NCBI GenBank assembly: GCA_018655275.1
Contig: JABIJZ010000010.1
Coordinates: forward strand, 9,274-73,273
Direction of reading: 5' to 3'
Source: Candidatus Peregrinibacteria bacterium
GTDB lineage: Bacteria > Patescibacteriota > Gracilibacteria > UBA1369 > LOWO2-01-FULL-3
DNA: 64,000 nt
The stretch's first letter is position 1; each line of letters opens with the position of its first letter. Position numbers and translations under genes: made by a program. The notes below the pieces were generated by a model. The model worked only from the letters and a program-made list of their open reading frames with translations, made no database searches and was not told where the DNA came from. This document shows positions 4,596 through 63,301 of this stretch, piece after piece.

Positions 4596-5444
4596 TTATT
4601 CAGTTAACAAAACTTTAAAGCCCTCCTTTTCTAACATTTTTTTGATTTTTTGAATAGACTTTGGCGTCGGCGGTTTCATGTCTTTCAGTCGATATTTTAA
4701 TCCCAATTTTTTCCATTTATAAACGCCATAAGTGTGGTAGGGGAGCAATTCAATCAGCTCAAACTTCACCTCGTGCAGAAACTCAACCAACGCGTGCAGA
4801 TTTTCTTTAGTATCGGTCACCCCAGGCATAACAACATATCGGAAACGGATTTTTGTTCTACTCTTCGCCCCACGCTTTTGTTGTGCAACTTTTTTGTTCG
4901 ACGCGTCTGACGCGCTCAACGCGCGGCTCAAAAATCGCACATTAGAAAGGATCCTTTCATTTGGCACACCAGTCATGCATTTGTGAGTATCCGAATCAAA
5001 ATGCTTCAAACTAATCATAAACAAATCCGTATACGGCAACACAGACTCAATAACTTTTTCACTTGTAAACAGGGAAGTGTCCAACGCAACGTGAATCCCT
5101 TCTTTCTTGCACAACTTCAAAAACTCAACCAAAAACTTCGGCTGGAAAACAGGATCCCCTCCACTAACCGTAACTCCGCCACTCTTCCCAAAATACGCTT
5201 TGTATTTGTGAACCTCCTCAATCAAAGCTTTCGGAGACATCTTTAAATAGTTCTTCATGTCGAGCATATCCCGATTATGACAATACGCACATCGCAACGG
5301 ACATCCTTCAAAGAAAACAACAAATCTCACCCCAGGCCCGTCCAACGCACCAAAAGTTTCAAACGAATGAATCATCCCAGTAGCACGATTGATCGGGCGA
5401 ACTTTAGCTTTGTCGGTTTTTGTAAGATTTTTGCATTGTGCCAT
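4596..5444 (-). CDS. pflA: Pyruvate formate-lyase activating enzyme (radical SAM)
   Basis: IHSFETFGALDGPGVRFVVFFEGCPLRCAYCHNRD carries the CxxxCxxC radical-SAM cluster motif typical of PflA. It lies directly downstream of pflB. An alternative start at Met24 (about 5375) is possible. Confidence 0.85.
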   Translation of the reverse strand: MAQCKNLTKTDKAKVRPINRATGMIHSFETFGALDGPGVRFVVFFEGCPLRCAYCHNRDMLDMKNYLKMSPKALIEEVHKYKAYFGKSGGVTVSGGDPVFQPKFLVEFLKLCKKEGIHVALDTSLFTSEKVIESVLPYTDLFMISLKHFDSDTHKCMTGVPNERILSNVRFLSRALSASDASNKKVAQQKRGAKSRTKIRFRYVVMPGVTDTKENLHALVEFLHEVKFELIELLPYHTYGVYKWKKLGLKYRLKDMKPPTPKSIQKIKKMLEKEGFKVLLTE

Positions 5445-5445
5445 A

Positions 5446-7740
5446 CTAATAAAACTTCTTATGAAATGTTCTAGAAATAACTTCCTTCTGCTGCTCCTTC
5501 GTCAATTTAATAAAATTCACCGCATATCCAGAAACACGAATCGTAAGCTGCGGATATTTTTCAGGATTCTTCATCGCATCTTCCAAGGTCTCCCGATCCA
5601 AAACATTCACATTTATATGGTGGCCACCATTTTCGAAATATCCATCCAGCATGTTCGCCAGATTGTCAGTCCGCATCTCCGAAGTCTTTCCGAGGGTCTG
5701 AGGGGCTATAGAGAATGTGTTCGAAATCCCATCTCGGCAATATGCATAAGGGAGCTTTGCTATTGAATTTAATGATGCTAACGCCCCTTTGGTGTCGCGA
5801 TTGTGCATTGGGTTTGCACCAGGAGCAAAAGGCTCATGAGCTTTCCTGCCATCGGGCGTAGCTCCAGTGTATTTTCCATAAACCACATTCGCAGTAATGG
5901 TCAAAAGAGACAAAGAATGTTCAGCCCCACGATATGTTGGATATTTTTTCAAAGCAGTTGTGAATTTTTTGCAAAGTTCAATTGCAATATTATCGACTCG
6001 TTTATCGTCGTTCCCAAACGCCGGATAAGCCCCCGTGATTTTGAAATCCACAGCGATCCCACGCTTGTCATAGACAGGCCGAACTTTGGCATGTTTCATA
6101 GCACTTAACGAATCCGCAACAATACTCATCCCCGCCATCCCAAACGCCATAAATCTATGAATCTCAGGATCATGCAAAGCCATTTGGCTGTTTTCATAAT
6201 GATGTCGATCGTGCATGTAGTGAATCACATTCATTGTTTCGACATATTTTTTCGCCAACCAATCCATCAATTTATAAAACCTCTCACTTACCTCCTTGTA
6301 TTCCAAAACTTTTCGATTTTTCAAAGGCTTCAAGCCATCAACAACCAAATCTCCAGTCAGCTCATTACGACCACCGTTAATCAAAAGCAGCAAGAGCTTA
6401 GGCAAATTACATCGAGCTCCAAAAAACTGCATCTCCTCACCAATAGTCATCGCCGAAACACAACAAGCAATTCCATAATCATCGCCATGGTACTTCCTCA
6501 TCAAATCATCGTTCTCAAACTGCAACGATGAAGAGGCCACAGCAACTTTAGACGAATATTTTTTGAAAGCTTCAGGCAGTTTGTCAGCCCAAAGCACAGT
6601 AAGATTCGGTTCAGGCGCAGGCCCAAGATTCGTCAACGTATGAAGCAAACGATACGCCGTTTTCGTCACCATGTGGCGACCGGCTTTTCCCCCACGACCG
6701 CCGGCACCACCAACAGCCCGCATTCCACCAAGCACACAAGTCACCCAAGTCGGATCCCCAGCAAACAAAGCATCGTATTCAGGATGTCTCAAATGTCTCA
6801 CAATCCTCAATTTAATAACAAAATCATCAACAAATTGCTGCACCTCTTTTTCAGAATACTTCCCGCTCTTCAAATCCCTCTCAGCATAAATATCTATAAA
6901 AGCATCGATTCGACCCATACTCATCGCAGCTCCATCTTGCTCTTTGACCGCAGCCAAATACGCAAAATAAATCCACTGAATAGCCTCGCGAACATCGCCA
7001 GCTGGACGACCAATATCATGGCCATAAGACGCAGCCATCTCCTTCATGTCCTTTAATGCCTTTATCTGGCGGTGAAACTCAACACGCTTGTTCAAATTCT
7101 CTTCATTCATATACGCACCACAAATACGAGCCTCATCAGCCTGACGCTCAGCGATCAATTTATCTAGCCCATACAAAGCAACTCGTCGATAATCCCCAAT
7201 GATTCTTCCTCGCGAATAGTTATCTGGTAATCCAGTGATGATCCCTTCCGAACGGAAAAATTTCCCCGCAGGCGTCCGGAATTCGTCCCAACTAGAATAA
7301 ATATCAAACACAGAATCATTGTGAGTCGTCACATATTTAGTAAAAATATCATGTAGCTTAGGGTCGGGTTTGTGTCCGAGCAGTTCACATGTCTTCTCTG
7401 CAAGACGAATCCCTCCTCCAGGTTTTAATCCACGCACAAGAGGTTTGTCAGTCTGTACACCGACAATCGATTCGTTGGTCTTGTCGATGTATCCAGGCTT
7501 GTGACTCGTGATGGTCGACGCAGTCTTCGTATCGACACCCAGCACTCCACCTTTTTTGAATTCTCGATTCAACAATTGTTTCGTTTTACCCCAGACTTTG
7601 ACTGTTTTGCGAGTAGGTTTTTCCAAAAACGACTCATCGCCGCTATAAGAAGTGTAATTTTTTAAAATAAAATCGCGAACATCTATAGACGTCTGCCATT
7701 TGCCCTTTTTGAAGCCTCTGTGAGGTAGAAGTTTAGCCAT
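5446..7740 (-). CDS. pflB: Formate C-acetyltransferase (pyruvate formate-lyase)
   Basis: PFL-like along its full length, with the glycyl-radical motif [11 protein letters not shown] near the C-terminus and the active-site CCVS. The tracked ORF 5446..7992 has an 84-aa hydrophobic junk extension. [15 protein letters not shown] at 7740 matches PFL N-termini. Confidence 0.9.
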
Positions 7741-7875
7741 ATTGGAAGGAATTAGGAATGAGAAACAAAATAAGAAAGAAAAGACTGAAAGAATTATATC
7801 AAAATCTAATCTAAAAAACATTGCCAAATAGGCATATTTTGTGGTAATTCTATATCTCAATAAACCTAAAAGCCG

Positions 7876-10800
7876 ATGGGCAGTGAAGACCAACAAGATG
7901 GTGATCCAAAGATACCTCCAGTAGAGCAGGTTGCAGATCCACGCGCGATCGGGGAAACTCCTTTTGGAAATGAGGAGGTTGACCGAGTACAAGGCCTCGA
8001 TATGGAAAGCGCTTTGGATGACCTGTACGATACAGAAAACGGGTCAATAACAGCAGTACTGGGAATAGAAAAAGACAATATAATAAAAACATTCCCAAAA
8101 GGCTCAGCTGTTTTAGAGGTGTCTTACTACGGAGATATAGAAAGTTCAATCAGTCAACTTTGTAAAATCTTTGGAGGAGAGTCCCTGCCCAAAAATTGGG
8201 AAAGTAACGGAGACAAGAGCTCAACACAATTTGTGTTCAGAAACAAAGATCAAGCAGTAGCGGCAGCGGCAAAAATAAACCAAAACATAGGGAACATAAT
8301 GAGCTTTGGTATAGGTTTGGGGTCAGGAGGGATAACAACCTCTGGAGGTGTGGCCATAAAACTTGGACCGATTTTCGATAATGTAAGAACAGCAATACAA
8401 AATCCTCAGGACGGAATGGTGAGTGTGCATTCTGGACTAGGAGTGGCTGAAAATATCCCAATGAATGAAGAGGCATCACAAATAACAGAATTTAAAAAAT
8501 TTGATTTCAACGCTGTCACAGAACAATCAATAATACATTCGTTGAGTTTAGGGTTAATGGAGCCTTTGCCAACAAAAGAAGGTGTTGTCGCGACAGTAAT
8601 ATTTCCAGAATACGAGGTTCATCGATCTTCTGCTCCAACAATGAGAAGAATCAAGGGATTGGTAAATGTGTTTAGAAACAAAAACACAAGAGTTACGCAT
8701 GCAGGTCGACAAATGCAAATAGCAATAGGTGGAGAAGGTACTCCAGGCGAAGCATTGAAAACCTTACAAAAAGTTTACAGCTATATTAAACCCTACGGCC
8801 TAACAGTTTATTTAGATTATGGTGAAGTAGATATTTCCCAAAAAAAAGAAGATGGACGGTTTGAGCTTGCAAGTGGGTTGATAGATATATTTAAAATATC
8901 TGCATTAAAACCAGGATGTTTTGCGTCGGACAGATTCGTGGCGGTTAGTGGCCATGTTCGTAATGAAGAATTGGCACAAGCACAATACACCCAACACCAT
9001 CAAGATGTGCACGAAATAGATAGCATAAAAAGAATACTTTACCCAGACCCATCTGACATAGACGGTTGTAGAGTCACCGTTGGTAGATATACAGAATTGA
9101 AAGCAGTTCAAGACAACTTAGAGGCTTTCCAAGAAAATCAAACTGCCAGCGTAATAGTTTTCAAAGGTACTGGAGGTATAGGTAAAACAAAAATTGGAAG
9201 AGATGAAACAATGAAAAGAGCTGAAGATCTTGGTCTTTCAACTGTTTACTTTAAGCAATTTGAAAAGGAGAGGAACAATCAAGGATTTGTGCTCAAAGCA
9301 TTTATGAAAGAAATATTTGACGAAAACCCTCAATTCAAATCAACATTTGGAGATCTTTATTTGTTCGCAAACGGAATATCAACCCCTGAATACGAAGGAC
9401 ACATAAGGATGCTTAAACAAAACAAAGCCCACATGCTGAAGCGCTTTCATGCACTAATGCAAGAAACATCAGTAGTAATAAGTTTGGACGATTTGCATTG
9501 GGTCGATGCGTATTCATTGGATGTTTTAGTGGAAGGTTGGTTGCAATATTTTGATGAAAATAGTAAACAAATGCTAGTCTTAGCAGGAAGAACAGGCGAA
9601 GAAAGCATCCCTTATAGAATAATAGCTGTATTAAAGAAAAGATGCCCTGCACTTCTGAAAGAATTCAATCTTCAACCATTGGATTTCCAAGAAGAAGAGA
9701 AAGGTTTGAAAAAAATAGATGCGTTAGTTAGAAACACATTGCCAGAAGAATGGGTAGGATGGGAAACAGCCACAATTCCAGTCTCATTTTTAAGAACAAT
9801 CGCTGCAAAATCAGAAGGTATGCCATTGATAGCCGAAGAATTAACATTATTCCTAACAAGAGGAGACAACCCAAAAGTCACATACGATCCAGCTAAAAAA
9901 GAAGTCATAGCCCCAGCAGGAATCATAGACAAATCAATAGAAGGCAAGGGAGTGAGTGCCGTAGTAAACACAATACTTCAAGCAAAATTCAGCAGATTGA
10001 CAGACGAAGAAGAACGAATGGCTGACTACATAATAGCAACAGGAGAAATCTCTCTAGATTTGTTTGTAGTGCTTTTGGAGCATTTTGGAATGGACCCAGC
10101 AAAGGTTGATGAAGTTTTAAAAAGCTTAAAAGATAAAAAAATAATAAATCTTCAACCAGTTGTGGGATTTTCCCATGACCTCATGAGGGCTGCACGAGAA
10201 TCTCATCTAAAAGAACAGACAGGACGATTGGCCCAAATAGCAATTGAATGTCACAAAACTCTAGAAAACACATCAGCGGAAATAAAAGAAGTTACTCCCG
10301 CAAAATTATTTGAATTGTTGCTAAAAGCGTATGAAGGTCTAGCTCATATAGACCAAGAAGAAGCAATCGGTGTAAGAAAAATAATAGTGGAAAAAGGATT
10401 GGCAGCTGCACAACATCAGAAAAAACATCACGACAACGATGCAGCTTTAGCCACAATCAAAAAACTTTTTGAAATAATAATGCCACAAGAAGGCGTCGTA
10501 AATTGGAGTGTGGTTCCAGAACGTGAAGGAAAGGATGGGCTGGATAAAAAAATACCACTAGCAGAGATTCAATATGAGTTAAATAAACTTGCTGCAGAAG
10601 TGCATACAAGAAACGGTGACCACAAAAAAGCATTAAGCTGTATTAAAGAAATGGAAAAATTAGTGGTCGCTTACACAGAAGAAGGAGGGGGCGGTGAAGC
10701 AAATTTCCTGGATACAAGAGAGTTTCTAAGAAGGGGGATCTTGAAATTAATAGCAGCATTATCTTCAGCAGATAAAACAGTTATATTGCCAGCCAAGGCT

Positions 10801-15207: not shown

Positions 15208-15283
15208 TGGTGGGCCTGGAAGGATTTGAACCTTCGACCAATCGGTTATGAGCCGACTGCTCTAACCCCTGAGCTACAGGCCC
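15208..15283 (-). tRNA. tRNA with CAU anticodon, either elongator Met or lysidine-modified Ile2; not an initiator
   Basis: The reverse complement folds as a cloverleaf: GGGCCTG TA GCTC AGGGGTTA GAGC A GTCGG CTCATAA CCGAT TGGTC GAAGG TTCAAAT CCTTC CAGGCCC A CCA. CCA is encoded. The anticodon stem lacks the 3 G-C pairs of initiators. The anticodon arm and variable region resemble E. coli tRNA-Ile2 as I recall it. Confidence 0.9.
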
Positions 15284-16483: not shown

Positions 16484-16504
16484 GTTGGAAATCCAAGTTT
16501 TGCC

Positions 16505-16590
16505 TCCCGGACAAGGGGGTTTTTTAAGTATTGTCCGGTACATGACCCCGGACAACACCTAGGAAAACGGGTCTTCCGGGACAAACACCA
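16505..16590 (+). promoter_or_regulatory. Conserved CCGGACAA-repeat element, copy A (second copy at 30176..30254)
   Basis: The core CCGGACAAGGGGGTTTTTTAAGTATTGTCCGGTACATGACCCCGGACAACACCTA matches copy B at 50 of 55 positions. It contains CCGGACAA-N16-TTGTCCGG (inverted) plus one or two further direct CCGG(G)ACAA copies. It sits just upstream of a TTGACA-17-TAGAAT promoter. Confidence 0.55.
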
Positions 16591-16610: not shown

Positions 16611-16639
16611 TTGACAAAATCCACAAAAGAGTATAGAAT
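16611..16639 (+). promoter_or_regulatory. Candidate sigma70-type promoter for the SLH surface protein gene
   Basis: TTGACA (16611-16616), a 17-nt spacer, then TAGAAT (16634-16639), about 55 nt upstream of the ATG at 16693. Confidence 0.45.
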
Positions 16640-16692: not shown

Positions 16693-18396
16693 ATGAAACG
16701 AATAATATCAACAGTAATTGGGCTAGCAGTAATGCTCAGCTCAACAATCACAGCTTCAGCATTCGAGCTGATAGAGCTGTATTACAACGGTAGTTTGGAC
16801 AACATTATCCAAGTTCAACCAAACATACCAACAACAAACCCAATCATTACCCAAAATTCGAATCGAATCGTATTAAAAAACGTCGAGGCGAATCCATCGA
16901 AATTCGACCCATACGACGATGAAGAAACTGAAATCCAATTCAAGCTAAGAGAAAAAGCTAGAGTAAGCGTAAAAGTCTACGACGAAAGTTGGGACTACAT
17001 TACTTCACTAGCTAGAAACAAAAATCTAGGTGCCGGAACTCACGACTATGAGTGGGACGGACTTGATAACAACGATGATATAGTGGATGATGACACGTAT
17101 TACGTGAAAGTAATCGCAAAAACAACTGATGGCTACGAAGAGGATAGTTACATTGAAGTAGACGTAAAAGAAGGTTCAAGCCATTCAACAGTTGAACCAA
17201 GACTTCAGGATGTTTTTGTATCAAAAAAATCATTCGACCCAGGAAGAAACGAAGTAACTTTCTTCGGATTTACAGTTACAGCTGAATCTGACATAGAGGT
17301 TTCAGTATACGACGGAGGCAACAAAATCCGTGAGATTTATTACAAAAAAGACTACGACGAAGGAACATACGTAATAGCTTGGGATGGTAAAGACGACGAA
17401 GGAAACAAAGTAAAAGAAGACGAAAACTACAAGATCAAAATCGCTGTAGAAAACGACGAAGGCTCAGATAATGCGTCAGCAACAGTAAGAGTTGAAGATG
17501 ACTCAGAATACTCTACAAAACACCCAAACATCTACAACGACACAACACACCCTATAGCCTACACTCCAGACGAGGAAGACTATATGGAATTCGCATTCAA
17601 AACTTCAAAAGATGCATACGCAACAGTCATGATTTATGACGATGGCGAAAAGATTGCAGAGGTTTTTGAAGGCAACGTAGACCAAGGAAAAAGCGAAATA
17701 AAATGGTACGGTAACGACGAAGACGGTAACCAAATCACAGATGGTGTTTACGACTACAAAATCATCGCTGAAAACACAGCAGGAGACAGTACTGAATGGG
17801 GAAAATTCATGGTTGTAGACGGTTACAAAAACAACTACTCAAAGAAGTGTGGCGGATTCACAGATATCTACGAAGACGATGACTATTGTGAAGCTGTTAA
17901 ATGGGCTGCCGACGAAGGTATTTTCGAAGGATACGACGACGGATCTTTCCAATCATACAGAGGAATTAGCCGAACAGAAGCACTAAAAGTAGTTCTCGAA
18001 GCTCTAGACTACAAGATCTACGACTCAGACGGTTCAAGCCTTGGATTCTCAGACGTAAACAAGAACCAATGGTACATGAGATACATCCGTTCAGGGATGA
18101 GACAAGGTATCGTAGAAGGATTCAAAGACGGATCTTTCCGACCAAACAAACAAGTTTCAAAATCAGAAGCTATCAAGATGGTTGTAAACGCAGCTCGAAT
18201 AGCTATCCCAACTTGTACAGAGGCTCCATACTTCGATGTTCCTATGTTCAAATGGTTCACAAACGAAGCATGTTTCGTCAAAGATTTCGAATTAACAGAC
18301 GATGAATATTGGTTTAATCCAAAAGGATTGTATACTAGAGGCGAAATGGCGGAATTGCTCTACAACTTTTACAAAGAAGGTTTACTTGCGAAATAA
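16693..18396 (+). CDS. Secreted cell-surface protein: signal peptide, four FlgD-Ig-like repeats, two C-terminal SLH domains
   Basis: Signal peptide is VIGLAVMLSSTITASA. Repeats have the pattern VxVYD...G.H.Y.WDG.D..G..V.DG.Y.(K)I.A. The SLH motifs are FTDIYEDDDYCEAVKWAADEGIFEGYDDGSFQSYRGISRTEALKVV and FSDVNKNQWYMRYIRSGMRQGIVEGFKDGSFRPNKQVSKSEAIKMV. Confidence 0.8.
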   Translation: MKRIISTVIGLAVMLSSTITASAFELIELYYNGSLDNIIQVQPNIPTTNPIITQNSNRIVLKNVEANPSKFDPYDDEETEIQFKLREKARVSVKVYDESWDYITSLARNKNLGAGTHDYEWDGLDNNDDIVDDDTYYVKVIAKTTDGYEEDSYIEVDVKEGSSHSTVEPRLQDVFVSKKSFDPGRNEVTFFGFTVTAESDIEVSVYDGGNKIREIYYKKDYDEGTYVIAWDGKDDEGNKVKEDENYKIKIAVENDEGSDNASATVRVEDDSEYSTKHPNIYNDTTHPIAYTPDEEDYMEFAFKTSKDAYATVMIYDDGEKIAEVFEGNVDQGKSEIKWYGNDEDGNQITDGVYDYKIIAENTAGDSTEWGKFMVVDGYKNNYSKKCGGFTDIYEDDDYCEAVKWAADEGIFEGYDDGSFQSYRGISRTEALKVVLEALDYKIYDSDGSSLGFSDVNKNQWYMRYIRSGMRQGIVEGFKDGSFRPNKQVSKSEAIKMVVNAARIAIPTCTEAPYFDVPMFKWFTNEACFVKDFELTDDEYWFNPKGLYTRGEMAELLYNFYKEGLLAK

Positions 18397-26236: not shown

Positions 26237-26608
26237 ATGGTGGTAGACTTCGAGGAAATCAAAGGCTTAGAACTCAGCGCACCAGAAATAGAAAGAGCTG
26301 ACGTAGACACTCAGCTCGATATCTTTCGGCTAGTTTCAGCTACAAAAGAAGAAATTGCAAAAGTATACGCCACAGTAAAGGACAAAGATGACGACACAAG
26401 CAAACTCCTGACATCTTTACTTTCAAAATACTATCATATGAAGGGTGAAGTCAGCAGCAGATCAATGCCAAAAGACGACATCACCGCCCAGCTTTCCAAA
26501 GAAGACCTTCCAGAGGACATCTTGGACCAGTTCAACGCTTTAGCCTGTAGCGGAATCAGAATCATTAGCATTAAAGGTAGTCGAACACCAAAGAAAGGAC
26601 ATGTCTGA
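26237..26608 (+). CDS. Hypothetical acidic protein carrying one copy of the repeat module found in the next gene
   Basis: A 123-aa ORF whose stop overlaps the next start (ATGTCTGA). Its C-terminus DILDQFNALACSGIRIISIKGSRTPKK resembles the repeat ends of the 553-aa protein. Confidence 0.5.
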   Translation: MVVDFEEIKGLELSAPEIERADVDTQLDIFRLVSATKEEIAKVYATVKDKDDDTSKLLTSLLSKYYHMKGEVSSRSMPKDDITAQLSKEDLPEDILDQFNALACSGIRIISIKGSRTPKKGHV

Positions 26609-28262
26609 CGTCTTGAACTGGACAGTAGTAAATCCAAACGTAAAGGTCGTAAGCTATGTGCCAGAAGAAGTAGAAGCACTTCACAGACGAATAAGAACCC
26701 AAATAGATGCCCCAGAAAACAGATCAAATCAAATATGGCAAAAAGCCGAACATTTAGTAGGTAAATTTTCAGCTACATCATTAGATGAGTTAGAGGACGC
26801 ATTAGGCGCAGACGATATACAGAAGCTGTTGGCAAATATAAATAAATACGCTCTAAACAAAATAGGAGCAGAAATACACATCCGCAACGACATGGCAGTC
26901 CTAAGCGAAATGGGGCAAGCCCCAGTCGTAGTACTAGGTCACCACAAGCCGGCACCAGCTCCAGCAGAAGAAAGCGAAGATCCAGTGACTCACGAACTTT
27001 CCCCAAAAGAATACGAAAAAGCAGAAAATATAGCGGCTGCTTTAGTCGCAGAATCAAAAGCAGATCCAAGAGCAACAACAACTAAAAGAAGAGGAAAGCG
27101 AGACCACGCAGAATACACAAGAGAAACCGCCAGAGAAAGGCGATTAAAAATAGCAAGCAGATTCATAGAAGCAATGATCAAACACAAAGAAGGGGTGCCA
27201 ACAGCAGCGTTAACAAAACATTTAAATTATGTAGGCCTAACAGCAGAAGATCTAATGGGTAAGCCATTAAAAGAAGCGAACAAAGCTCTTAAAACAGTTG
27301 GATTACAAATAGAAGTCAGAGACGGTAAACTTCTCATCCTCACAAAAAAAGAAGAGAAACTGGAAACTCCAAAAAGACCACGTGGCTCACGTAAAAAAGA
27401 AGTTGAAGGCATACAAGGCGTAGAAATTCCTCTACGTGAAGGCCTAAAAAACCTCCCGGAAGAGTTCCTAATACTATTAGATCGAATGGGAAGAGTTTAT
27501 CCTCATTTGAAAAGAAACTATAAACGAGTCGGCGCAATAATGAGAGTAATGTCTCAATTTCACAAGGGGATTCATATAGAAGACATTCCTGTTCTTTTGA
27601 AAGAGCAATACAAAGTCAGGTCAACAAAAGAGCAAGCATTTAATGCACTAACGAATATAGTTGACAACCTTTTAAGGGATTTCGGAATAAGCTTGCAAGT
27701 CGAAGATGGATCTGAAAAAGCCCGATTAGTATTAGATTTAGAAGGAAACAAAGAGCTCAAGGTGGTATTTGAGGCATTTGCAAGAAATCTCAAGGAAAAA
27801 GAAGCAGCCCTGAAACTAAGGGCGGAAAGGGCAGCAACTTTAGCAGAAAGGCTTCAAGAAAAAAACACAGCTGCCATGTTGGAACGCCACGAAAAAAGAG
27901 CTGCCTACCTAGAATCAATAAAAATTGAAGGAACCAAACGTGAAGAAGTTTTAGCCTTCGCAGAAGAGAAACTAGCAAAGGGAAATTACAGGGGTGGAGG
28001 TTCATATAAATATGGAGCCATAATAAAAGAAATCGCAAGCCCCACCCGGAAGCCAATAACGCGAATGGGACTCATTTCAATCCTATCTCTTAGATACCAA
28101 ATAGAAATCACAAAAGCTGACCTAGCAAAAATGATAAATAATATAAATTTAAACGAGCTAAAACCAAAACTAAATGTCAAAATTTTAGCCCACCAAGACA
28201 AACTAAGGATGGTCAACGTAATAGAGGGTGATAAAGACGATGACGAAGATTCAGAAGACTAA
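26601..28262 (+). CDS. Hypothetical protein with four internal repeats, possibly winged-helix-like modules
   Basis: The repeats end in ALNKIGAEIHIRNDMAVL (aa 84-101), ALKTVGLQIEVRDGKLLIL (229-247), LLRDFGISLQVEDGSEKARLVL (357-378) and LNELKPKLNVKILAHQDKLRMV (517-538). Linkers are basic or coiled-coil and the tail is acidic. No known family recognised. Confidence 0.55.
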   Translation: MSDVLNWTVVNPNVKVVSYVPEEVEALHRRIRTQIDAPENRSNQIWQKAEHLVGKFSATSLDELEDALGADDIQKLLANINKYALNKIGAEIHIRNDMAVLSEMGQAPVVVLGHHKPAPAPAEESEDPVTHELSPKEYEKAENIAAALVAESKADPRATTTKRRGKRDHAEYTRETARERRLKIASRFIEAMIKHKEGVPTAALTKHLNYVGLTAEDLMGKPLKEANKALKTVGLQIEVRDGKLLILTKKEEKLETPKRPRGSRKKEVEGIQGVEIPLREGLKNLPEEFLILLDRMGRVYPHLKRNYKRVGAIMRVMSQFHKGIHIEDIPVLLKEQYKVRSTKEQAFNALTNIVDNLLRDFGISLQVEDGSEKARLVLDLEGNKELKVVFEAFARNLKEKEAALKLRAERAATLAERLQEKNTAAMLERHEKRAAYLESIKIEGTKREEVLAFAEEKLAKGNYRGGGSYKYGAIIKEIASPTRKPITRMGLISILSLRYQIEITKADLAKMINNINLNELKPKLNVKILAHQDKLRMVNVIEGDKDDDEDSED

Positions 28263-29764: not shown

Positions 29765-29986
29765 TTATTTTGCAGCGTACTCCAATAAAGATAAATATCC
29801 TTTGTTCGCAAGATAATCAACCAATGTCAAAAAGATCGCAAAAACAAATGTGAATCCCAAAACAATTGCGGTCAGTCTCACAGCCTGATTCTTGGTCGGC
29901 CAAGTGACTTTAGTCAACTCTTGGATACTACTTTTCACGTAGTTCACGAATTTGTTATTTTTTGCAGCGCTTTTTATATCAGCCAT
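29765..29986 (-). CDS. secE: Preprotein translocase subunit SecE
   Basis: A 73-aa protein with VKSSIQELTKVTWPTKNQAVRLTAIVLGFTFVFAIFL, lying immediately upstream of nusG in the conserved arrangement. Confidence 0.8.
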   Translation of the reverse strand: MADIKSAAKNNKFVNYVKSSIQELTKVTWPTKNQAVRLTAIVLGFTFVFAIFLTLVDYLANKGYLSLLEYAAK

Positions 29987-30175
29987 GGTTTTATTATTAA
30001 TAATTTCCGATTAATTCCAATTACTGCGATTTTAGACGCGATATCCTTTTTTTTCAACCATTTTAACCAAAAAAAGCCCCCGAGAACTTTATCTACGCAT
30101 CTGAAATACAAACAAAGTGTACAACCTTTGGAGAAAAAACGCAAGAAAATTCAAGTGGTGGTGTGGAATGGTGTA

Positions 30176-30254
30176 TTCCGGACAAAGGGGATTCTTAAGT
30201 ATTGTCCGGTATATCACCCCGGACAACACCTAAAAACACAAGCCTTCCGGGGCC
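30176..30254 (+). promoter_or_regulatory. Conserved CCGGACAA-repeat element, copy B
   Basis: CCGGACAAAGGGGATTCTTAAGTATTGTCCGGTATATCACCCCGGACAACACCTA matches copy A (16505..16590) at 50 of 55 positions. It lies about 170 nt upstream of the first pilin-module gene. Confidence 0.55.
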
Positions 30255-30292: not shown

Positions 30293-30321
30293 TTTACCCA
30301 AACCTAAAAAAATGATATAAT
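30293..30321 (+). promoter_or_regulatory. Candidate promoter with extended -10 for the pilin-module/PKD locus
   Basis: TTTACC (30293-30298), a 17-nt spacer, then TGATATAAT (TATAAT at 30316-30321). Confidence 0.4.
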
Positions 30322-30345: not shown

Positions 30346-31401
30346 ATGCTAAAAAAGATTTTCAAATTCCTTCTGGAGGCCGGAGTAATAACAGGCCTAA
30401 TCTTAATGTTTATCCAAGTTCCAATCACATTGGCGGCAACAGCTCATTCCGCAACAACTGCGGCAATCGCAACAGAAACAGAAGTTCAAGACTCAATGCT
30501 TCTGGCGGCAACAACTTCAAAAACTTCAATCCCGTTGCCAGACGGCTCAAGGTACGAATACATTCCAACACCTGCCGCAGGGCAAACAGCCAAGCAAACA
30601 ATATCAGTAGTAATAGAGCAAGCGATAGGTTATTTCAAAATTCTGATAGGAGGTGTGGCGATAGGATTTATAATCTTTTCGGGAACAAGACTAGTGGTAT
30701 CAGGAGGGGACGAAGAGGCAATCAAAAAAGGAACAAAAGGACTTTTATTTAGTATAGCGGCCCTCGCGATAATTTCATTATCCGAAGAGGTCGGAGTTTT
30801 GGTCGGATTTTTCCAAGGGGAAACCCCGACAGGAGGTATAATCAAAAGCCCAGGAGAAATCTTGAGACGAGTACACATTTTCGATAGACAGGTGGAAATC
30901 GTAATGACATTTATAAAATACTTAATAGGATCGTTGGCAGTACTCATGATTGTAGTCAACGGAGTGAAGTTGGTGGTAGGTGGCGGTGAAGAAGAAAATA
31001 CAAAAAAGGCGAGGAACGGAGTTGTATACTCACTTCTTGGATTAGTTTTATTGGTTTTCGGAAGCACTTTGATCAATGACGTTTTCTACAAAGTGGACAA
31101 AAACGTCTACTCTGGAATGGAATCAGTTACGCCAACAGTAGACCTAGCAAGAGGTGTGAACGAAATAGTCGGTATCACGAACTTCATAGTAAGTTATGTA
31201 GGTCCGGTGCTCCTATTGTTATTGTTAATTGGAGGGGTTCTATACCTGACTTCGGGAGGGGAAGAAGAGAATATGAATAGAGCAAAAAGATTGATAATCG
31301 CGGCACTAATAGGTGTGGTCGTAATATATGGGGCGTTTGCTGTCGTGAGTACGATAGTCTCAGGCTCATTTTCTGCAACCGCAAATGAATTAATAACTTA
31401 G
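30346..31401 (+). CDS. Membrane protein with three tandem VirB2/TrbC-like (CPR T4SS-pilin-type) two-TM modules
   Basis: The modules lie at aa 93-147, 185-243 and 276-336. Each is hydrophobic helix - GG(D/E)EE..(K/R)KA(K/R) loop - hydrophobic helix, for example FIKYLIGSLAVLMIVVNGVKLVVGGGEEENTKKARNGVVYSLLGLVLLVF. Confidence 0.7.
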   Translation: MLKKIFKFLLEAGVITGLILMFIQVPITLAATAHSATTAAIATETEVQDSMLLAATTSKTSIPLPDGSRYEYIPTPAAGQTAKQTISVVIEQAIGYFKILIGGVAIGFIIFSGTRLVVSGGDEEAIKKGTKGLLFSIAALAIISLSEEVGVLVGFFQGETPTGGIIKSPGEILRRVHIFDRQVEIVMTFIKYLIGSLAVLMIVVNGVKLVVGGGEEENTKKARNGVVYSLLGLVLLVFGSTLINDVFYKVDKNVYSGMESVTPTVDLARGVNEIVGITNFIVSYVGPVLLLLLLIGGVLYLTSGGEEENMNRAKRLIIAALIGVVVIYGAFAVVSTIVSGSFSATANELIT

Positions 31402-50496: not shown

Positions 50497-51792
50497 CTAA
50501 TCCCCAAACCTCTCTATAGCCTTCGCCAACTCAGGCCTTGTCTTTGCATATTGAGCGATCGTCTTTTTCTTCTGCCAAGCCTCACAAGCCTGGACCAAAG
50601 CCATGGCTCCGGCACGAGTTCCATCAGGATGAGAATGACATCCCGCCCCCATAGTAGTGATAAAATCAGTCGAACCAAAAGCATCGATCAGACGAGCCAG
50701 TTTCGTAGGGTTTAGTCCACCAGAAGCGATAGGAGCACAAGGTTTCATTCCTTTCCAATCTTGTTCATAGAAGAATCCTTGAGATTTCTTATCAAAAGCT
50801 GAATGAACAGCAGTGATATCCTCACGAACATCGCCTTTCATTTTGCCAATACCAGCGGTTCCCGTATGAATTCCAGAAGAACCAGCCAACCTACCAAATT
50901 TAGTCAAAATCGGCACAGAATACCCAAACGCATTTTCAGGTCTAGTATAAGCACCGTGTCCAGCACGATGGAAATGCAAGAACACATCCGGAAATTTCCG
51001 ACGAATAGTCTGCACCGCAGTCCAACCCGCAGTAACCCCATCAACCAAGAAAGCATAGCTTCCGCGCTTCATAGTCTTTCGAACAAACTTCGCCCTTTCA
51101 ATCATAGTATCCAAATCCGAAGCTGAAATATTTATAGAAAAAACCTTTTTATGACCCGTCTCCTTCACAACTTTTCTCATTTGTTTATTGACCTCACGAA
51201 TCACATCCTTGAAGGGAGCAAAAACCTGATCAGCCTGAGGTTCATCAAATTTCACAAAATCACCACCACCTGCCCAAAATTCATAACACACCTTCGCAAA
51301 TTCAACAGGTTTCAATCCAATCTTAGGTTTAACAATAGTTCCAAGAATAGGGCGATTCCCAATCCCCAAATATTTTTTCAAATCTCTCAAAGTATAAGCA
51401 GGTCCGTCAAACTGATCCAAAAACCGTTTAGGAAACCAAACATCCTCCAGCCTCAAACCGTTCAACGTAGACATCCCGTAAACATTCCCCGCAATATAAG
51501 TCATCACATTCTGCACATTCCCACCCCGATCAAAAATCTCCAATGGATAAGCCAAAAACGCCAATTTCTTCTTTGGATCGATCTTGTACACACGCGCATT
51601 CAAATCATCAGAAAAAGAAGTCGCCGTAGAAACACGCATATTCGATCCAGTACTAGATTCAGCCGCGACCTCAGTCGCCAGCCCTTTGAAATCTTCACCT
51701 TTCGCCGGCAGCATAGTAAAAGCCGCGAGCAAATATTTACCTGAATAAAGTTCTTTTTTTGTTAGGCGTAAGCCAAGATACTGTTTTTGCAT
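50497..51792 (-). CDS. rbcL: Ribulose-1,5-bisphosphate carboxylase large-subunit homolog, form III or II/III type
   Basis: Catalytic motifs are AAESSTGSN, GNVYGM, GTIVKPKIGL, GGDFVKFDE (K-x-D-E, with Phe where canonical KDDE has Asp), HFHRAGHG, SGIHTGTAGIGKMKG, ASGGLNP and GAGCHSHPDG. At 431 aa with no small-subunit gene nearby. Confidence 0.85.
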   Translation of the reverse strand: MQKQYLGLRLTKKELYSGKYLLAAFTMLPAKGEDFKGLATEVAAESSTGSNMRVSTATSFSDDLNARVYKIDPKKKLAFLAYPLEIFDRGGNVQNVMTYIAGNVYGMSTLNGLRLEDVWFPKRFLDQFDGPAYTLRDLKKYLGIGNRPILGTIVKPKIGLKPVEFAKVCYEFWAGGGDFVKFDEPQADQVFAPFKDVIREVNKQMRKVVKETGHKKVFSINISASDLDTMIERAKFVRKTMKRGSYAFLVDGVTAGWTAVQTIRRKFPDVFLHFHRAGHGAYTRPENAFGYSVPILTKFGRLAGSSGIHTGTAGIGKMKGDVREDITAVHSAFDKKSQGFFYEQDWKGMKPCAPIASGGLNPTKLARLIDAFGSTDFITTMGAGCHSHPDGTRAGAMALVQACEAWQKKKTIAQYAKTRPELAKAIERFGD

Positions 51793-52815: not shown

Positions 52816-54558
52816 ATGACAAAAATAACATCCATATTAGCATTTTTCATACTTTCGCTAGTAGCTGTGCAAAGCTCATTTCAGAGCTCATTCGCTTTTA
52901 CCGACGTCTCAGGAAATTCAAAATATTACGAGGCAATCTCAGGTCTAGAATCTTCAGACATCGTCGATGGAAACCCAGACGGTACTTTCGAACCAGCCGA
53001 ATCAATAAACAGAGCCGAGTTTCTGAAAATAATTGTCGAAGCCCAATACAACAACATCCAAGGCTCAGGATGTTTCCCCGATGTCCCAGCAAAATGGTTT
53101 GAGAAATACATATGTTTCGCAAAATCAGAAGGCATAGTGGACGGCTACGACGACAATACTTTCCGCCCAGGAGACACCATCTCTCTGGCAGAAGGAACCA
53201 AAATCTTACTAGAAAGCTTAAACATGAAGGTCTCTCCTGTACAAAACACAAAATGGTACACACCATACATGCAAGTAGCAGAGTCAATGTATCTGATCGG
53301 AAACCTAACCAACGATCCAAAAAAAGAACTAACAAGAGAAGAGGCCGCCCAATTGATATACAATTCTCAGGAAGAAACCATGCCTTCCACTCCGACCCCG
53401 GTCGAACCTCCAACCCCGACCGAAACCCCGACCGAAACCCCGACCTCAGGCCTATTCGATGAAGAATACACACATCTCCCACCAGGAAAATGGGATTGGA
53501 ACAACGCTGACAACGATTTCGCAAACTACAGAAACTTCGAAACAAACATCGGAAAATTCAACCCACTCAAAAACAACGATGGAGAGCAATACGGCTGGGA
53601 ACTCATCGGCAACAATCCAGATGCAATAGAATTCGACGGTCCAGCTATGTATTTCTACGGATCTAGCGGCACAGACCTCATAAATCTTGGAGCAAGAGGT
53701 TCAATCCACAGTTTTGGAGATGGAAACCTAGCAGGCGGTGATGACGTACTGGTTTTCGAAGAATCATACAGCCTCGATTTCAGGACAGGGTCAAGCCTAG
53801 ACAATTCCGACCAAGACGACGACTTAGTAATAGGAGGATGCACCCCAAACACAGACACAAGCTTCGATATAGAAACAACCACAATCCACACAGGTCCGGG
53901 ATCAGACACAGTATTCATCAGAGACATGGAGCGAGCAGCAATAGACGCTGGAAATGGGTCAAATGGAAGGACGGACTCAATCGATCCAAACGATGGAGAC
54001 GACGTCGTTGTATTCAGAGGCAACATGCTGGACTTCAGGTTTTTTGGAGGCAATGGAGATGACACAGCAGTATGGTACGTAGATGAACCAAACCAAGACA
54101 CAACTTGGCTAGGTCCAAATTTCTTTGGAGGAGGTGGTGATGGAGATGCGTTGTGGGAAGACGAAGGCACTGACACTCTGGTATTAGTAATCCCAACCGA
54201 CACAACCATCACAACCACAACTCCAACACAACCAGGCGAAGTATTGGTACGCACATTGGCAGGATATCCCACAGAGCCAGATATAGACGCACCAGTCGAC
54301 CACGACTCATACGCAAGATACTGTATGACTTGTGGAATAAGCCCAGAAGGCAAAAAAACAATCACAGTAGAATACAACAACAAAGAAGGCACAGTCCGTA
54401 CCGGATATTTCTGGCTCACAGATATGGAGCGCCTCCAAATAGGAGTAGGCTCAAATGCAAAAGTCTACGAGCTAGATTCAGTAAACGGAACAGCAACACT
54501 AAACACATCTCTTCCAAAATTCACACCTCCGGAAGTCCCAGAAGGGTATTGTAAATAA
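52816..54558 (+). CDS. Secreted protein with two N-terminal SLH domains, a PT-rich linker and a Gly/Asp-rich C-terminal domain
   Basis: Has a signal peptide. SLH motifs are FTDVSGNSKYYEAISGLESSDIVDGNPDGTFEPAESINRAEFLKII and FPDVPAKWFEKYICFAKSEGIVDGYDDNTFRPGDTISLAEGTKIL. The linker is PTPVEPPTPTETPTETPT. GGNGDD, GGGGDGD and GPGSD motifs suggest calcium binding. Confidence 0.75.
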   Translation: MTKITSILAFFILSLVAVQSSFQSSFAFTDVSGNSKYYEAISGLESSDIVDGNPDGTFEPAESINRAEFLKIIVEAQYNNIQGSGCFPDVPAKWFEKYICFAKSEGIVDGYDDNTFRPGDTISLAEGTKILLESLNMKVSPVQNTKWYTPYMQVAESMYLIGNLTNDPKKELTREEAAQLIYNSQEETMPSTPTPVEPPTPTETPTETPTSGLFDEEYTHLPPGKWDWNNADNDFANYRNFETNIGKFNPLKNNDGEQYGWELIGNNPDAIEFDGPAMYFYGSSGTDLINLGARGSIHSFGDGNLAGGDDVLVFEESYSLDFRTGSSLDNSDQDDDLVIGGCTPNTDTSFDIETTTIHTGPGSDTVFIRDMERAAIDAGNGSNGRTDSIDPNDGDDVVVFRGNMLDFRFFGGNGDDTAVWYVDEPNQDTTWLGPNFFGGGGDGDALWEDEGTDTLVLVIPTDTTITTTTPTQPGEVLVRTLAGYPTEPDIDAPVDHDSYARYCMTCGISPEGKKTITVEYNNKEGTVRTGYFWLTDMERLQIGVGSNAKVYELDSVNGTATLNTSLPKFTPPEVPEGYCK

Positions 54559-54640: not shown

Positions 54641-54928
54641 ATGAATAAAGCAAAAAACAACAACCAGGCGTCCAAAGAATTGTACGAAGCTATTCTCGAA
54701 TTACAGTCTGTTGATGAATGTAAAAAATTCTTCAGAGATCTTTGTACGCTCTCAGAATTAACTTCAATGGTTGAAAGATTCCAGGTCGCAAAAATGGTGG
54801 ACAACAAAACTCCATATCGAGAAATAAACAAAAAAACAGGTTCAAGTACAGCCACTATCACTCGTGTAGCCCATTGGTTGCATCATGGAAAGGGTGGTTA
54901 TAACCTTGTACTTGATAGGATGAAATAA
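54641..54928 (+). CDS. TrpR-related YerC/YecD family DNA-binding protein
   Basis: ELYEAILELQSVDECKKFFRDLCTLSELTSMVERFQVAKMV...TGSSTATITRVAHWL matches the YerC/YecD (Trp repressor fold) pattern. Confidence 0.75.
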   Translation: MNKAKNNNQASKELYEAILELQSVDECKKFFRDLCTLSELTSMVERFQVAKMVDNKTPYREINKKTGSSTATITRVAHWLHHGKGGYNLVLDRMK

Positions 54929-55010: not shown

Positions 55011-56312
55011 ATGAAAAAAAATGAATCAAAAATCGAACCAAAAATCCTAAAAGGTACGAGAGACTTCACGCCAGTAGAAATGGCAAAAAGAAATCTCGTT
55101 ATGGCCAAAATCCGAAAAGTTTTCGAAAAATTCGGATACGACGCCATCGAAACCCCAATCATCTGCCCAGCAGAAACGATCCTGGGGAAATATGGGGATG
55201 AAGGCAATCGCTTAACCTATAATTTTGATGACGCAGGTGGGAGACGTATTGCGCTGCCATTCGACTTAACAGTCCCATTTGCCAGATTTTTTGCAGCAAA
55301 TTGGAGAGAGCTAACTCTTCCATTCAAAAGATACCAAATCCAAAGAGTTTGGCGCGCAGAAAAACCGCAAAAAGGACGACTCAGGGAATTTTATCAATGC
55401 GATATCGATATAATAGGGACAAGAAATCTCACTGCAGAAAGTGAAATAGCCGCAGTCGTAGTCGAAGTATTCAAAGAGCTCGGTTTAGAATTCAGAATAA
55501 AAATAAATTCTAGACGGCTAATGAATACAGTTCTAGAGCGTTTCAATATCCCCGAAGAAAAACGTATAGGAGTGATAACAATCATAGATAAGATACTGAA
55601 AATAGGAGAAGAGGCCGTGATAGCAGAAATTAAAGCTTTAGGCGTAGAAAACCCAAAAGAAATTTTAGAACTTCTCAAGCCTGAGAAAAACACAAAAACA
55701 ACTTTAGAAAAATTCAAAGAATACGACCTAAAGGAAATAGAAGAATTCTTCGAAAATTGTGAGAATCTTGGAATCTCAGCAGAATATTTGGAATTCGATC
55801 CGTCCCTAGCCAGGGGATTGGACTACTACACAGGAATCATCTACGAAGTTGTAAGCAAAGACTCAGATTTTGGGACAATATGTGCAGGAGGCCGATACGA
55901 CAATCTATGCGGACTTTTTTGTAAGGAAGATTTCTCTGGACTTGGAGTGGCATTTGGATTTGAAAGAATAATGCTTCTTTTAGAAAAAACAGGTGCATTC
56001 AAAGACATCCAACTCAATTCAAAAGTTTTGGTAACTATTTTCGATGAAGAATCTAAAAAAGATTCCTTGAAAATCTACGCAGATTTAATAAAAGCAGGCA
56101 TAAATTCTGAAATCTATTTTGAGCCTGAAAAATTAGGAAAACAAATGAAATATGCCGACAAAAAACGCATTCCTTTTGTTGTCATAAGGGGCTCTGAGGA
56201 AATTGAAAAAGAAGAAGTCACCATAAAGTTCATGAACAGCGGAAAACAGAAAACAATTCCTCGTACTCAACTAACATCATATCTATCAAATTATTATGAA
56301 TCAAAAGAATAA
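55011..56312 (+). CDS. hisS: Histidine--tRNA ligase; may also serve as the HisZ partner of short HisG
   Basis: Motif 2 is VWRAEKPQKGRLREFYQCDIDIIG. The His-binding peptides RGLDYYTG and GGRYDNL are present. A full C-terminal anticodon-binding domain (VLVTIFDEE...IPFVVIRGSEEIEKEEVTIKFM) is also present. It overlaps hisG by 17 nt. Confidence 0.8.
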   Translation: MKKNESKIEPKILKGTRDFTPVEMAKRNLVMAKIRKVFEKFGYDAIETPIICPAETILGKYGDEGNRLTYNFDDAGGRRIALPFDLTVPFARFFAANWRELTLPFKRYQIQRVWRAEKPQKGRLREFYQCDIDIIGTRNLTAESEIAAVVVEVFKELGLEFRIKINSRRLMNTVLERFNIPEEKRIGVITIIDKILKIGEEAVIAEIKALGVENPKEILELLKPEKNTKTTLEKFKEYDLKEIEEFFENCENLGISAEYLEFDPSLARGLDYYTGIIYEVVSKDSDFGTICAGGRYDNLCGLFCKEDFSGLGVAFGFERIMLLLEKTGAFKDIQLNSKVLVTIFDEESKKDSLKIYADLIKAGINSEIYFEPEKLGKQMKYADKKRIPFVVIRGSEEIEKEEVTIKFMNSGKQKTIPRTQLTSYLSNYYESKE

Positions 56313-56916
56313 AAAAATCAGAATTGCCATACAAAAAAGGGGGAGACTCCAAGAACCAAGCTTAAATTTCCTGAAAAACTTAGGACTAAAATTCAAGCCA
56401 AACGGGAGTAAACTCATAACTCTTTGTACAAATGCAAACGTGGAAATATTGTACGTGAGAAACAGCGACATCCCTCAATATGTGAAATACGGCGTCGCGG
56501 ACTACGGCATAGTTGGTGAAAATGTTTTGATAGAAAAAAAAGCCAAACTCAAAATAATAAGAAGACTTGGGTTTGGAAAATGCAAACTAATAATAGCCGT
56601 TCCAAAAAAATCTAATATCAAAACCATAAATGACCTGAGCGAGGAGCGAATAGCAACGTCATATCTGAATACCCTCAAACAATATCTCAAAAACAAAAAG
56701 ATCAACGCTTCAACCATAGAGATTAATGGCTCGGTAGAAATTTGTCCGACTCTCAACATGGCGGATGCAATTTGTGACATAACCCAGACAGGAACAACTC
56801 TAAAAGAAAACAACCTTGAAATCATAGAGAAAATTCTGGATTCAGAGGCTGTGCTGATAGAAAGCCCTTTTACAAATCAAAATTTAACCCCAGAGCAATG
56901 GAAAAATATTACCTAG
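56296..56916 (+). CDS. hisG: ATP phosphoribosyltransferase, short (HisZ-dependent) form
   Basis: IRIAIQKRGRLQE, DIPQYVKYGVADYGIVGENVL and CDITQTGTTLKENNL. At 206 aa it lacks the C-terminal regulatory domain. Confidence 0.9.
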   Translation: MNQKNKKIRIAIQKRGRLQEPSLNFLKNLGLKFKPNGSKLITLCTNANVEILYVRNSDIPQYVKYGVADYGIVGENVLIEKKAKLKIIRRLGFGKCKLIIAVPKKSNIKTINDLSEERIATSYLNTLKQYLKNKKINASTIEINGSVEICPTLNMADAICDITQTGTTLKENNLEIIEKILDSEAVLIESPFTNQNLTPEQWKNIT

Positions 56917-62966: not shown

Positions 62967-63301
62967 CTTCCACCACCCAACAACATACCATGGACCTATA
63001 CCTAGGGTGTAGGTCCATTAAACCAAACAACCATGAAAGAGCCATTCAAAAAAACTCACTTGCTCATCTCAAGAAAGCGCAAGGGATGATAAAGAAAGTG
63101 ATCACCATGATTGAAGAAGATGCGTATTGCATGGATGTACTGCAGCAAAGTTTAGCCGCGACAGGTTTCATAAAGTCGGCAAACAAAGTGATCCTCGAAA
63201 ATCATTTGAACTCGTGTTTCAAAGCTGGGATGCAAAGTAAGAGCGATGCTAAACAGCAAGCCCTGATAGACGAAGTCTTAAGGATTATGGACAAGACATA
63301 A
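62963..63301 (+). CDS. CsoR/RcnR/FrmR-family metal-sensing transcriptional repressor
   Basis: LAHLKKAQGMIKKVITMIEEDAYCMDVLQQSLAATGFIKSANKVILENHLNSC shows the DUF156 pattern with the conserved Cys and a C-terminal H...C. The true start may be internal (for example Met10 at 62990). Confidence 0.75.
   Translation: MTSTTQQHTMDLYLGCRSIKPNNHERAIQKNSLAHLKKAQGMIKKVITMIEEDAYCMDVLQQSLAATGFIKSANKVILENHLNSCFKAGMQSKSDAKQQALIDEVLRIMDKT

Follow-up and report, generated by a model that had tools for sequence, protein, structure and literature searches.

A 77-nt element upstream of two surface-protein genes of a Candidatus Peregrinibacteria genome resembles a small, copied palindromic repeat more closely than a proven regulatory switch shared by both genes

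Introduction

Repetitive extragenic palindromic (REP) elements and REPINs occur in enterobacteria and Pseudomonas, and miniature inverted-repeat transposable elements (MITEs) include the Correia elements of Neisseria, ERIC, and RUP/BOX. The pap pilin switch of Escherichia coli consists of GATC sites in regulator-binding sites between divergent promoters. For bacteria of the candidate phyla radiation (CPR), almost nothing is known about gene regulation and repeat dynamics, and we know of no description of REP/REPIN-type elements in CPR genomes. The pili and surface proteins of these bacteria are thought to mediate host attachment. Here, we analyze a short palindromic element that is present twice (copies A and B) in a 64,000-nt stretch of a Candidatus Peregrinibacteria (CPR) genome (contig JABIJZ010000010.1; this whole stretch is called the window), in each case beside the promoter of a surface-protein gene. 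The genome is 1.2 Mb and 94% coding, and intergenic DNA makes up ~4 kb of the 64 kb of the window (about 6%). It has more in common with a small palindromic repeat of the copy-and-paste type than with a proven switch shared by the two loci, and searching the literature revealed no account of such elements from Peregrinibacteria or Patescibacteria.

Anatomy of the element and relationship of the two copies

Copies A and B are identical at 65 of 78 aligned bases (83%, 13 differences), or at 85% over 74 nt in a gapless alignment. An earlier note on this DNA, made from its letters alone, had described a conserved element of about 55 nt upstream of two surface-protein loci. Both sequences that it quoted lie where it had placed them, and this 55-nt core is identical at 50 of 55 positions (90.9%; blastn-short E value, 6e-14). 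The inverted pair and the direct copy of an 8-mer that it recognized are present as well, but they belong to a single 77-nt nested palindrome with a fourth, degenerate box, and the further CCGGGACAA that it listed for copy A is probably the junction of the element end with older flanking sequence. The left flanks of the two copies are unrelated, as the note had stated for the flanks in general, which is consistent with copy-paste, but a C-rich stretch and the promoter are weakly similar. Promoter-like sites were found at exactly the positions assigned to them just downstream of the element, and the genes that follow do encode the SLH protein (FlgD_ig plus SLH domains) and the pilin (T4SS_pilin) that had been named (Table 1).

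The 8-mer CCGGACAA occurs eight times in the window versus 0.99 ± 0.85 times in shuffled sequences, and none of 100 shuffles reached eight. Six of the eight occurrences lie in the two elements (16507, 16531 on the minus strand, 16548, 30178, 30202 on the minus strand, and 30219), and the remaining two (35144 and 37425) fall within PKD-protein coding sequence. Each copy has four CCGG cores, at offsets 0/28/41/69 in both A and B. The arms of the palindrome are 34 nt long and 71% complementary around a 9-nt center, with an outer stem of 7 bp (TCCCGGA / TCCGGGA) and internal loops of ~13 nt. Box 4 starts 41 nt after box 2 and is aligned by MAFFT with a TTACCCGGG box of the element in the sister species described below (L068); alternatively, the element can be viewed as two 41-nt units, each of the form CCGGACAA-N16-T(TG/CT)TCCGG-N9. 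The nested fold was recovered on both strands, so that either strand can fold back on itself, and two A.C mismatches of the inner stem on the plus strand are G.U pairs on the minus strand. Perfect stems of ≥9 bp number only seven in the window, and none of them is related to the element.

The differences between the copies are unevenly distributed. None of the 24 positions in the three exact boxes differs versus 13 of 54 positions outside them (P = 0.007), and differences affect 2 of 42 stem positions versus 11 of 36 positions elsewhere (P = 0.0045). The repeat is genuine, with constraint acting on its symmetric parts. Because the spacers are shared as well as the boxes, A and B arose by copying and not by convergence on a binding motif. 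Searches of the window by blastn-short, an nhmmer profile, and a covariance model returned no third copy, the left flank of the window (L065) holds none, and a plasmid database gave no match to the element. Contigs of other samples were 99.8 to 100% identical to the window and hence uninformative about strain polymorphism.

Distribution in related genomes

Proteins identical to ones encoded in the window occur in GCA_018650345.1 and on a JGI contig of 1.2 Mb. The relatives compared were Peregrinibacteria or Peribacteria metagenome-assembled genomes (MAGs). By housekeeping proteins, the closest is the species represented by L068 and L074 (L11, 95%; PurD, 87%; NusG, 91%; FolD, 85.5%). At the position of copy B, in the spacer separating secE from the pilin gene, L068 carries an element of the same architecture, in which CCCGGAC..GGGGGGG is followed by 2.5 tandem 42-nt units of TTACCCGGGTG-AGG-CACCCGGGTAA-CACC. 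Its boxes (TTACCCGGGTG / CACCCGGGTAA) have the same offsets (0, 24, 41) as those of the window element, and the center of its promoter-proximal dyad lies 81.5 nt from the center of the –35 box, identical to copy B. The L068 element aligns gaplessly with the window copies over 86 nt, and in this alignment 84.5% of cells overall are paired versus 39 to 48% when the partners are slid by 1 to 3 columns. Both sides of the inner stem have changed at pairs 22/56, 29/49, and 30/48 (A-U to U-A, G-C to A-U, and U-A to C-G). Sequence similarity alone is not significant; the case for orthology of the L068 element rests on position, architecture, and register. The 42-nt tandem repeat of L068 occupies positions 9810 to 9909, with its 2.5 units 98% identical; a Logan contig of the sister species (L071) starts at position 1 inside the 42-nt repeat, which suggests an assembly break there.

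The conservation in related genomes that the earlier note had set as a check on its reading is found, as shared architecture and position, at the pilin locus of L068 but neither at the SLH locus of L074 nor at most pilin loci. In the L067 SLH ortholog (57% identical), 36 nt lie between maf and the gene, and the same promoter overlaps the end of maf, with no element. In the sister species (L074), the same SLH promoter lies ~60 nt after maf, again with no element. Because both genomes have the orthologous promoter without the element, the SLH promoter predates the element. Three other SLH-type genes of the same organism (52816-54558, P0034, and the neighbor of P0034) have no element either. About two dozen relatives have the TTTAC-N17-TGnTATAAT promoter at the pilin locus, where the element is absent from L063, L072, L167, and L173 and from 80 GTDB relatives. 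In most relatives, the secE and pilin promoters stand back to back with nothing element-like between them, and by-eye reading of the sequences showed back-to-back TTGCAA-17/18-TATAAT promoters. One relative, L170, has a perfect palindrome with 17-nt arms, CACTAGTGTCCCGTTAA-CT-TTAACGGGACACTAGTG (9878-9913), exactly between the secE and pilin –35 boxes, the spot of copy B; all that it has in common with the window boxes is a TGTCC..G core.

An element of the same architecture is present at a nonorthologous site in L072 (19253-19340; covariance model, 35.8 bits; E value, 7e-5). It has four GCCCGGGC boxes with CCCGGG cores at offsets 0/29/44/73 and begins ~25 nt past a PKD-gene stop codon, a 3'-end position ~180 nt from the next promoter. 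The clade also harbors a second intergenic family, consisting of spacer-less CCGG-cored palindromes together with direct ACAGGTTA / TAACCTGT motifs, the flanks of the palindromes being species specific (TCTCCCCGGGGAGA, TCAACCGGTTGA, TTAATCCGGATTAA, and ACCCCGGGGT). This family was seen in six relatives at varying sites beside housekeeping genes, often between tmk and dut (Table 1). The L065 site belongs to the same species as the window, lies just to its left, and is upstream of another SLH paralog; the window itself contains no member of the second family.

Scans for the exact three-box pattern covered GTDB genomes (5 loci), metagenomes (53 loci), and viral contigs (2 loci), collections that contain neither the genome of the window nor the sister genome. 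All matches were rejected as repeats without relationship to the element apart from the shared 8-mer: marine tandem repeats of 46 nt, perfect palindromes of 75 nt from one high-GC metagenome, a locus that is Bacteroidetes-like by promoter type, and iteron-like arrays. In unrelated organisms, arrays based on the 8-mer lie in L178 (6000-6170; a viral contig), L003/L050, L031, and L058; the iteron-like runs of CCGGACAA/TTGTCCGG surround a small hairpin and were seen in a viral contig and in proteobacterial MAGs. In metagenome Ga0209628, about 25 contigs (e.g., L009, L013, and L029) carry a multicopy perfect palindrome of 75 nt in which CCGGACAARGGGGA of the window element recurs. We judged the sharing of CCGGACAARGGGGA or of a 42-nt period with scan matches to be the product of query design plus chance.

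Origin and placement of the element

Our preferred reading, held with evenly balanced confidence, is that the element is a REP/REPIN- or MITE-like palindromic repeat that evolves fast and whose local effects are incidental. We favor such a repeat over a shared operator because of the copy-paste relationship of A and B, the empty SLH site in relatives, the genome-specific boxes, the amplification in L068, the site occupied in L072, and the clade-wide CCGG palindromes. The element would then be one of a rapidly evolving class of intergenic palindromic repeats with CCGG cores in the Peregrinibacteria clade; it would spread by copy-and-paste and presumably have no dedicated regulatory function. 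Copy B is probably the older one, because the sister species has the same architecture at that place; it may be ancestral to the two species, with copy A pasted later between maf and the SLH promoter. The element would act at the level of DNA or of a single-stranded hairpin, because dyad symmetry and boxes are what is conserved, and it could serve either as the recognition structure for its own copying or as a bound or cruciform-forming dyad.

The surroundings of the two copies may explain their placement. Copy A has the maf stop codon (16483) on one side and the SLH-gene promoter on the other, and copy B lies in the spacer separating the divergent secE-nusG and pilin-operon promoters, which, as predicted, put it in nontranscribed spacer DNA. 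Both copies end 29 to 40 nt upstream of the –35 box, and the distance from dyad center to –35 center is 70.5 nt for copy A and 81.5 nt for copy B. The bases just upstream of a –35 box may be almost the sole site that tolerates 77 extra bases. Because so compact a genome leaves few insertion-tolerant stretches, the promoter-side placement is weak evidence for regulation. If the element is such a repeat, annotators should be aware that a conserved motif by a promoter can reflect insertion tolerance alone.

An intrinsic terminator of maf appears to have arisen by co-option of the left end of copy A. A predicted hairpin (16502-16520) followed by TTTTTT, 19 nt past the maf stop, has the form of such a terminator, and a terminator scan returned two terminator-like matches, in copy A only. 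RNA folding gave –11.3 kcal/mol with the hairpin in A and no such hairpin in B. The CCUCCC-GGACAA-GGGGG hairpin and the U6 run after it were created by 4 of the 13 differences between A and B (positions 2, 11, 16, and 19). Copy B has no terminator and follows no gene. If the element is REP/MITE-like, then even 1.2-Mb, 94%-coding CPR genomes carry fast-evolving palindromic repeat families, and such repeats can be co-opted, here as a terminator.

Several observations weigh against the repeat reading. There are only two copies in ~70 kb (the window plus about 5 kb of flank), both beside surface-protein promoters; with about 6 of about 31 promoters within or next to the window being surface type by our own gene count, the chance of both copies lying there is ~0.03 to 0.04. 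The three exact boxes are perfectly conserved between the copies, and retention at one orthologous site in two species, with the dyad kept, suggests function rather than neutral junk. The dyad-to-–35 distances, of which the fourth is 123.5 nt (beside 70.5, 81.5, and 81.5 nt), differ by about 1 and 4 helical turns, and whole-turn spacing is the expectation for a promoter-facing protein site. Traces of a mobile element are also few: none of the window open reading frames scanned against Pfam matched a transposase or RAYT family, reading of the flanks revealed no target-site duplication and no direct repeat beside either copy, and the only candidate for a terminal inverted repeat is the 7-nt outer stem, which is not convincing. 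Finally, an nhmmer model built from A and B alone missed the L068 element, and the reciprocal search from L068 gave a nonsignificant E value of 1.9, with copy A, in register, as the best match in the window.

Alternative explanations

The earlier note had seen the element mainly as an operator or activator-site array shared by surface genes. A dimeric or tetrameric regulator bound to the CCGGACAA/TTGTCCGG boxes would coregulate the pilin/PKD and SLH promoters, possibly along with secE-nusG. With the two 41-nt units spaced by about four turns, the boxes would lie on one face of the helix, and the regulon would have expanded in this lineage when the entire array was duplicated. We consider this account possible, if doubtful. 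The boxes are indeed the most conserved part of the element (6 of 6 exact, while the spacers diverge), and they are kept better than the spacers at a set position directly upstream of two sigma-70-like surface-gene promoters. The box period is 41 to 42 nt in both the window element and L068, the dyad is retained in that sister species, and the dyad-promoter distances, exactly equal for copy B and L068, otherwise differ by approximately whole helical turns. The window also encodes small DNA-binding proteins (TrpR family and CsoR family), neither of which is linked to the element. However, the shared spacers show that the two arrays arose by copying, and growth of a regulon by copied arrays would be unusual in bacteria. 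The boxes differ between sister species (TTGTCCGG versus TTACCCGGG), so that regulator specificity would have had to shift in step, and the same box is not seen at orthologous promoters, given that >80 relatives keep the pilin promoter without the element and that the sister species lacks it at the SLH promoter. The other three SLH-type genes of the organism do without it, and the L072 element sits behind a stop codon, ~180 nt from the next promoter. The palindromes of relatives at the copy B spot have perfect, near-spacer-less arms of 13 to 17 bp, longer and more perfect than typical operators, and no cognate regulator was identified. If the operator account is true, the 77-bp element would be a DNA bait for a regulator of CPR surface structures.

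A broader proposition treats the dyad as a true cis-regulatory module that controls surface structures of CPR bacteria, either protein bound or acting as a CCGG-methylation- or supercoil-sensitive switch between the secE-nusG and pilin promoters. Such a module would have been retained, its symmetric boxes coevolving, by two or perhaps three Peregrinibacteria lineages at the least count of two, and duplicated here to control an S-layer-type protein. If true, this would be the first defined regulon/operator in an uncultured CPR bacterium and a case of regulon growth by whole-array copying. We think this rather unlikely.

A sequence-tolerant structural DNA element, whether a cruciform or supercoil sink between back-to-back promoters or four CCGG sites forming a methylation-sensitive switch that tunes surface structures, seems quite improbable. 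The same interpromoter spot is occupied by different palindromes in the window species, L068, and L170, as though symmetry and not sequence were kept; the highest negative supercoiling would be expected between divergent promoters under the twin-domain model; and the spacing of the four CCGG cores is conserved both in the window element and in L072, where the cores read CCCGGG. On the other hand, extrusion is expected to be poor, with perfect stems of 8 bp, mismatches, a 9-nt loop, and a DNA fold of –14 to –18 kcal/mol, and copy A is not between divergent promoters. Most relatives have no palindrome at all at this spot, CCGG is neither depleted nor enriched in the window (86 observed versus 80 expected), and no methyltransferase was seen there.

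A structured RNA, either a plus-strand 5' leader or attenuator of the surface genes, as the note had alternatively proposed, or a minus-strand small or antisense RNA or secE-nusG leader, is highly improbable, even though the minus-strand fold beats shuffles (z scores of –2.5 and –3.05), the inner stem has two or more non-Watson-Crick positions that are G.U on the minus strand and A.C on the plus strand, both sides of stem pairs have changed relative to L068, and the L072 relative is placed where it would be transcribed as a 3' untranslated region: both copies lie upstream of conserved promoters instead of between transcription start and start codon, the promoters at locus B fire outward from the element, no promoter is predicted to transcribe it on either strand, a minus-strand RNA at locus A would be antisense to maf, the plus-strand fold is no better than shuffles (z scores of –0.7 and –1.3), the outer-stem differences of copy B are wobbles on the plus strand, opposite to the inner stem, so that there is no consistent strand signal, no Rfam family scored above noise, and compensatory change is equally expected of a DNA palindrome.

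Three further candidates were set aside. Avoidance or enrichment of a restriction site was rejected, the CCGG count giving no signal. An invertible promoter was rejected as well, there being no box partner downstream of either promoter and the flanking pairs being short and A/T-rich or imperfect. A DnaA box or a CsoR/RcnR-type operator was dropped after poor matches in a comparison made by eye only.

Genomic context

Table 1. Positions of the element, its parts, and associated features (window coordinates unless a contig is named)
Feature	Position	Strand	Remarks
Copy A	16505-16581	None	77-nt nested imperfect palindrome, center 16543; covariance model, 91.7 bits
Copy B	30176-30252	None	77-nt nested imperfect palindrome, center 30214; covariance model, 90.2 bits
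Box 1, CCGGACAA	A, 16507-16514; B, 30178-30185	+	8-mer scan
Box 2, TTGTCCGG, inverted	A, 16531-16538; B, 30202-30209	-	8-mer scan
Box 3, CCGGACAA	A, 16548-16555; B, 30219-30226	+	8-mer scan
Box 4, degenerate inverted (TCTTCCGG in A, CCTTCCGG in B)	A, 16572-16579; B, 30243-30250	-	By reading
Inner dyad, TAAGTATTGTCCGG, 9 nt, CCGGACAACACCTA	A, 16525-16561; B, 30196-30232	None	14-bp stem; fold and inverted-repeat search
Terminator-like hairpin plus T6 run at left end of copy A	16502-16526	+	Directly after maf; no copy B equivalent
Predicted promoter of SLH/FlgD_ig gene, sigma-70-like	16611-16639	+	TTGACA-17-TAGAAT; promoter scan
Predicted promoter of pilin/PKD operon, sigma-70-like	30293-30321	+	TTTACC-17-TATAAT, extended –10 TG; conserved in many Peregrinibacteria
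Predicted divergent secE-nusG promoter	30029-30057	-	Promoter scan
FlgD_ig+SLH protein gene	16693-18396	+	Downstream of copy A; ATG 186 nt away
T4SS_pilin protein gene	30346-31401	+	Downstream of copy B; first gene of pilin/PKD cluster; ATG 168 nt away
secE	29765-29986	-	Divergent from pilin operon
Second-family site, L065	5565-5620		
Second-family site, L063	1772-1843		
Second-family site, L072	1416-1507		
Second-family site, L167	3046-3137		
Second-family site, L173	5029-5148		
Second-family sites, L175	5166-5227 and about 9780-9900		

The only obvious regulators encoded in the window are a TrpR-family (YerC-like) protein of 95 amino acids (54641-54928, plus strand), located between an SLH gene and hisS, and a CsoR-family metal-sensing repressor (62963-63301, plus strand), located after the his operon and followed on the parent contig by a DUF411 gene. 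A tRNA-Met (CAT) gene (15208-15283, minus strand) is the sole Rfam/ARAGORN match in the window.

Near the pilin locus, the interval from the predicted promoter of secE to its start codon contains a conserved AAAAAGCC..GGC motif (about 30062-30085 in the window, minus-strand sense), which is frequently a small hairpin. It is present at the equivalent position in >20 Peregrinibacteria relatives and may be a conserved leader of secE-nusG. Farther upstream, two genes without a Pfam match (123 and 553 amino acids; 26237-28262, plus strand) have rplK on one side and a conserved 273-amino-acid gene beside nusG on the other. The content of this slot between rplK and the 273-amino-acid gene varies: it is empty in L068, holds a 685-amino-acid LegC2C7-like gene in L167, and holds a 235-amino-acid gene in L170.

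The window also encodes a RuBisCO large-subunit homolog (50497-51792, minus strand), a pyruvate formate-lyase-like glycyl-radical enzyme with its activase (4596-7821, minus strand), and, after hisS, a complete-looking histidine biosynthesis operon (55011-62966, plus strand). Together these represent a fairly rich metabolism for a 1.2-Mb CPR genome.

Comparison with known repeats and switches

The pap Lrp/GATC switch of E. coli resembles the pilin locus in having several short, spaced sites between the pilin-operon promoter and a divergent promoter. In both cases the boxes contain a palindromic, potentially methylatable site (CCGG here), and the spacing is in whole helical turns. Unlike in pap, no regulator or methyltransferase was identified for the window element, the sites lie within a palindrome that was copied, the sister species do not share the box sequence, and the second copy (A) is not between divergent promoters.

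MITEs such as the Correia elements, ERIC, and RUP/BOX offer a second comparison. The window element differs from them in having no target-site duplication, only a weak 7-nt terminal inverted repeat, and no known parent insertion sequence element. Like MITEs, it is noncoding, ~80 nt long, and of inverted-repeat character, it has unrelated flanks and empty orthologous sites in relatives, and its copies lie next to genes, where they may be able to supply terminators or alter expression.

REP elements and REPINs usually number tens to hundreds per genome, whereas two copies of the window element were seen in ~70 kb; the window yielded no RAYT gene, and the host is a 1.2-Mb CPR genome. REPs are usually located at gene 3' ends or between convergent genes, and the copies here are just upstream of promoters. 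Like a REP, the element is extragenic and built of short imperfect palindromic units, with arms of ~34 nt, inside the 20- to 40-nt range of REPs, bounded by a CCGGACAA...TTGTCCGG-type pair. As in a REPIN, two inverted units form one long hairpin of about 80 to 100 nt. Its consensus is genome specific and diverges fast between species while the copies within a genome stay alike; and, as with REPs, local tandem clusters occur (here in L068), and copies may end up as terminators or 3' hairpins.

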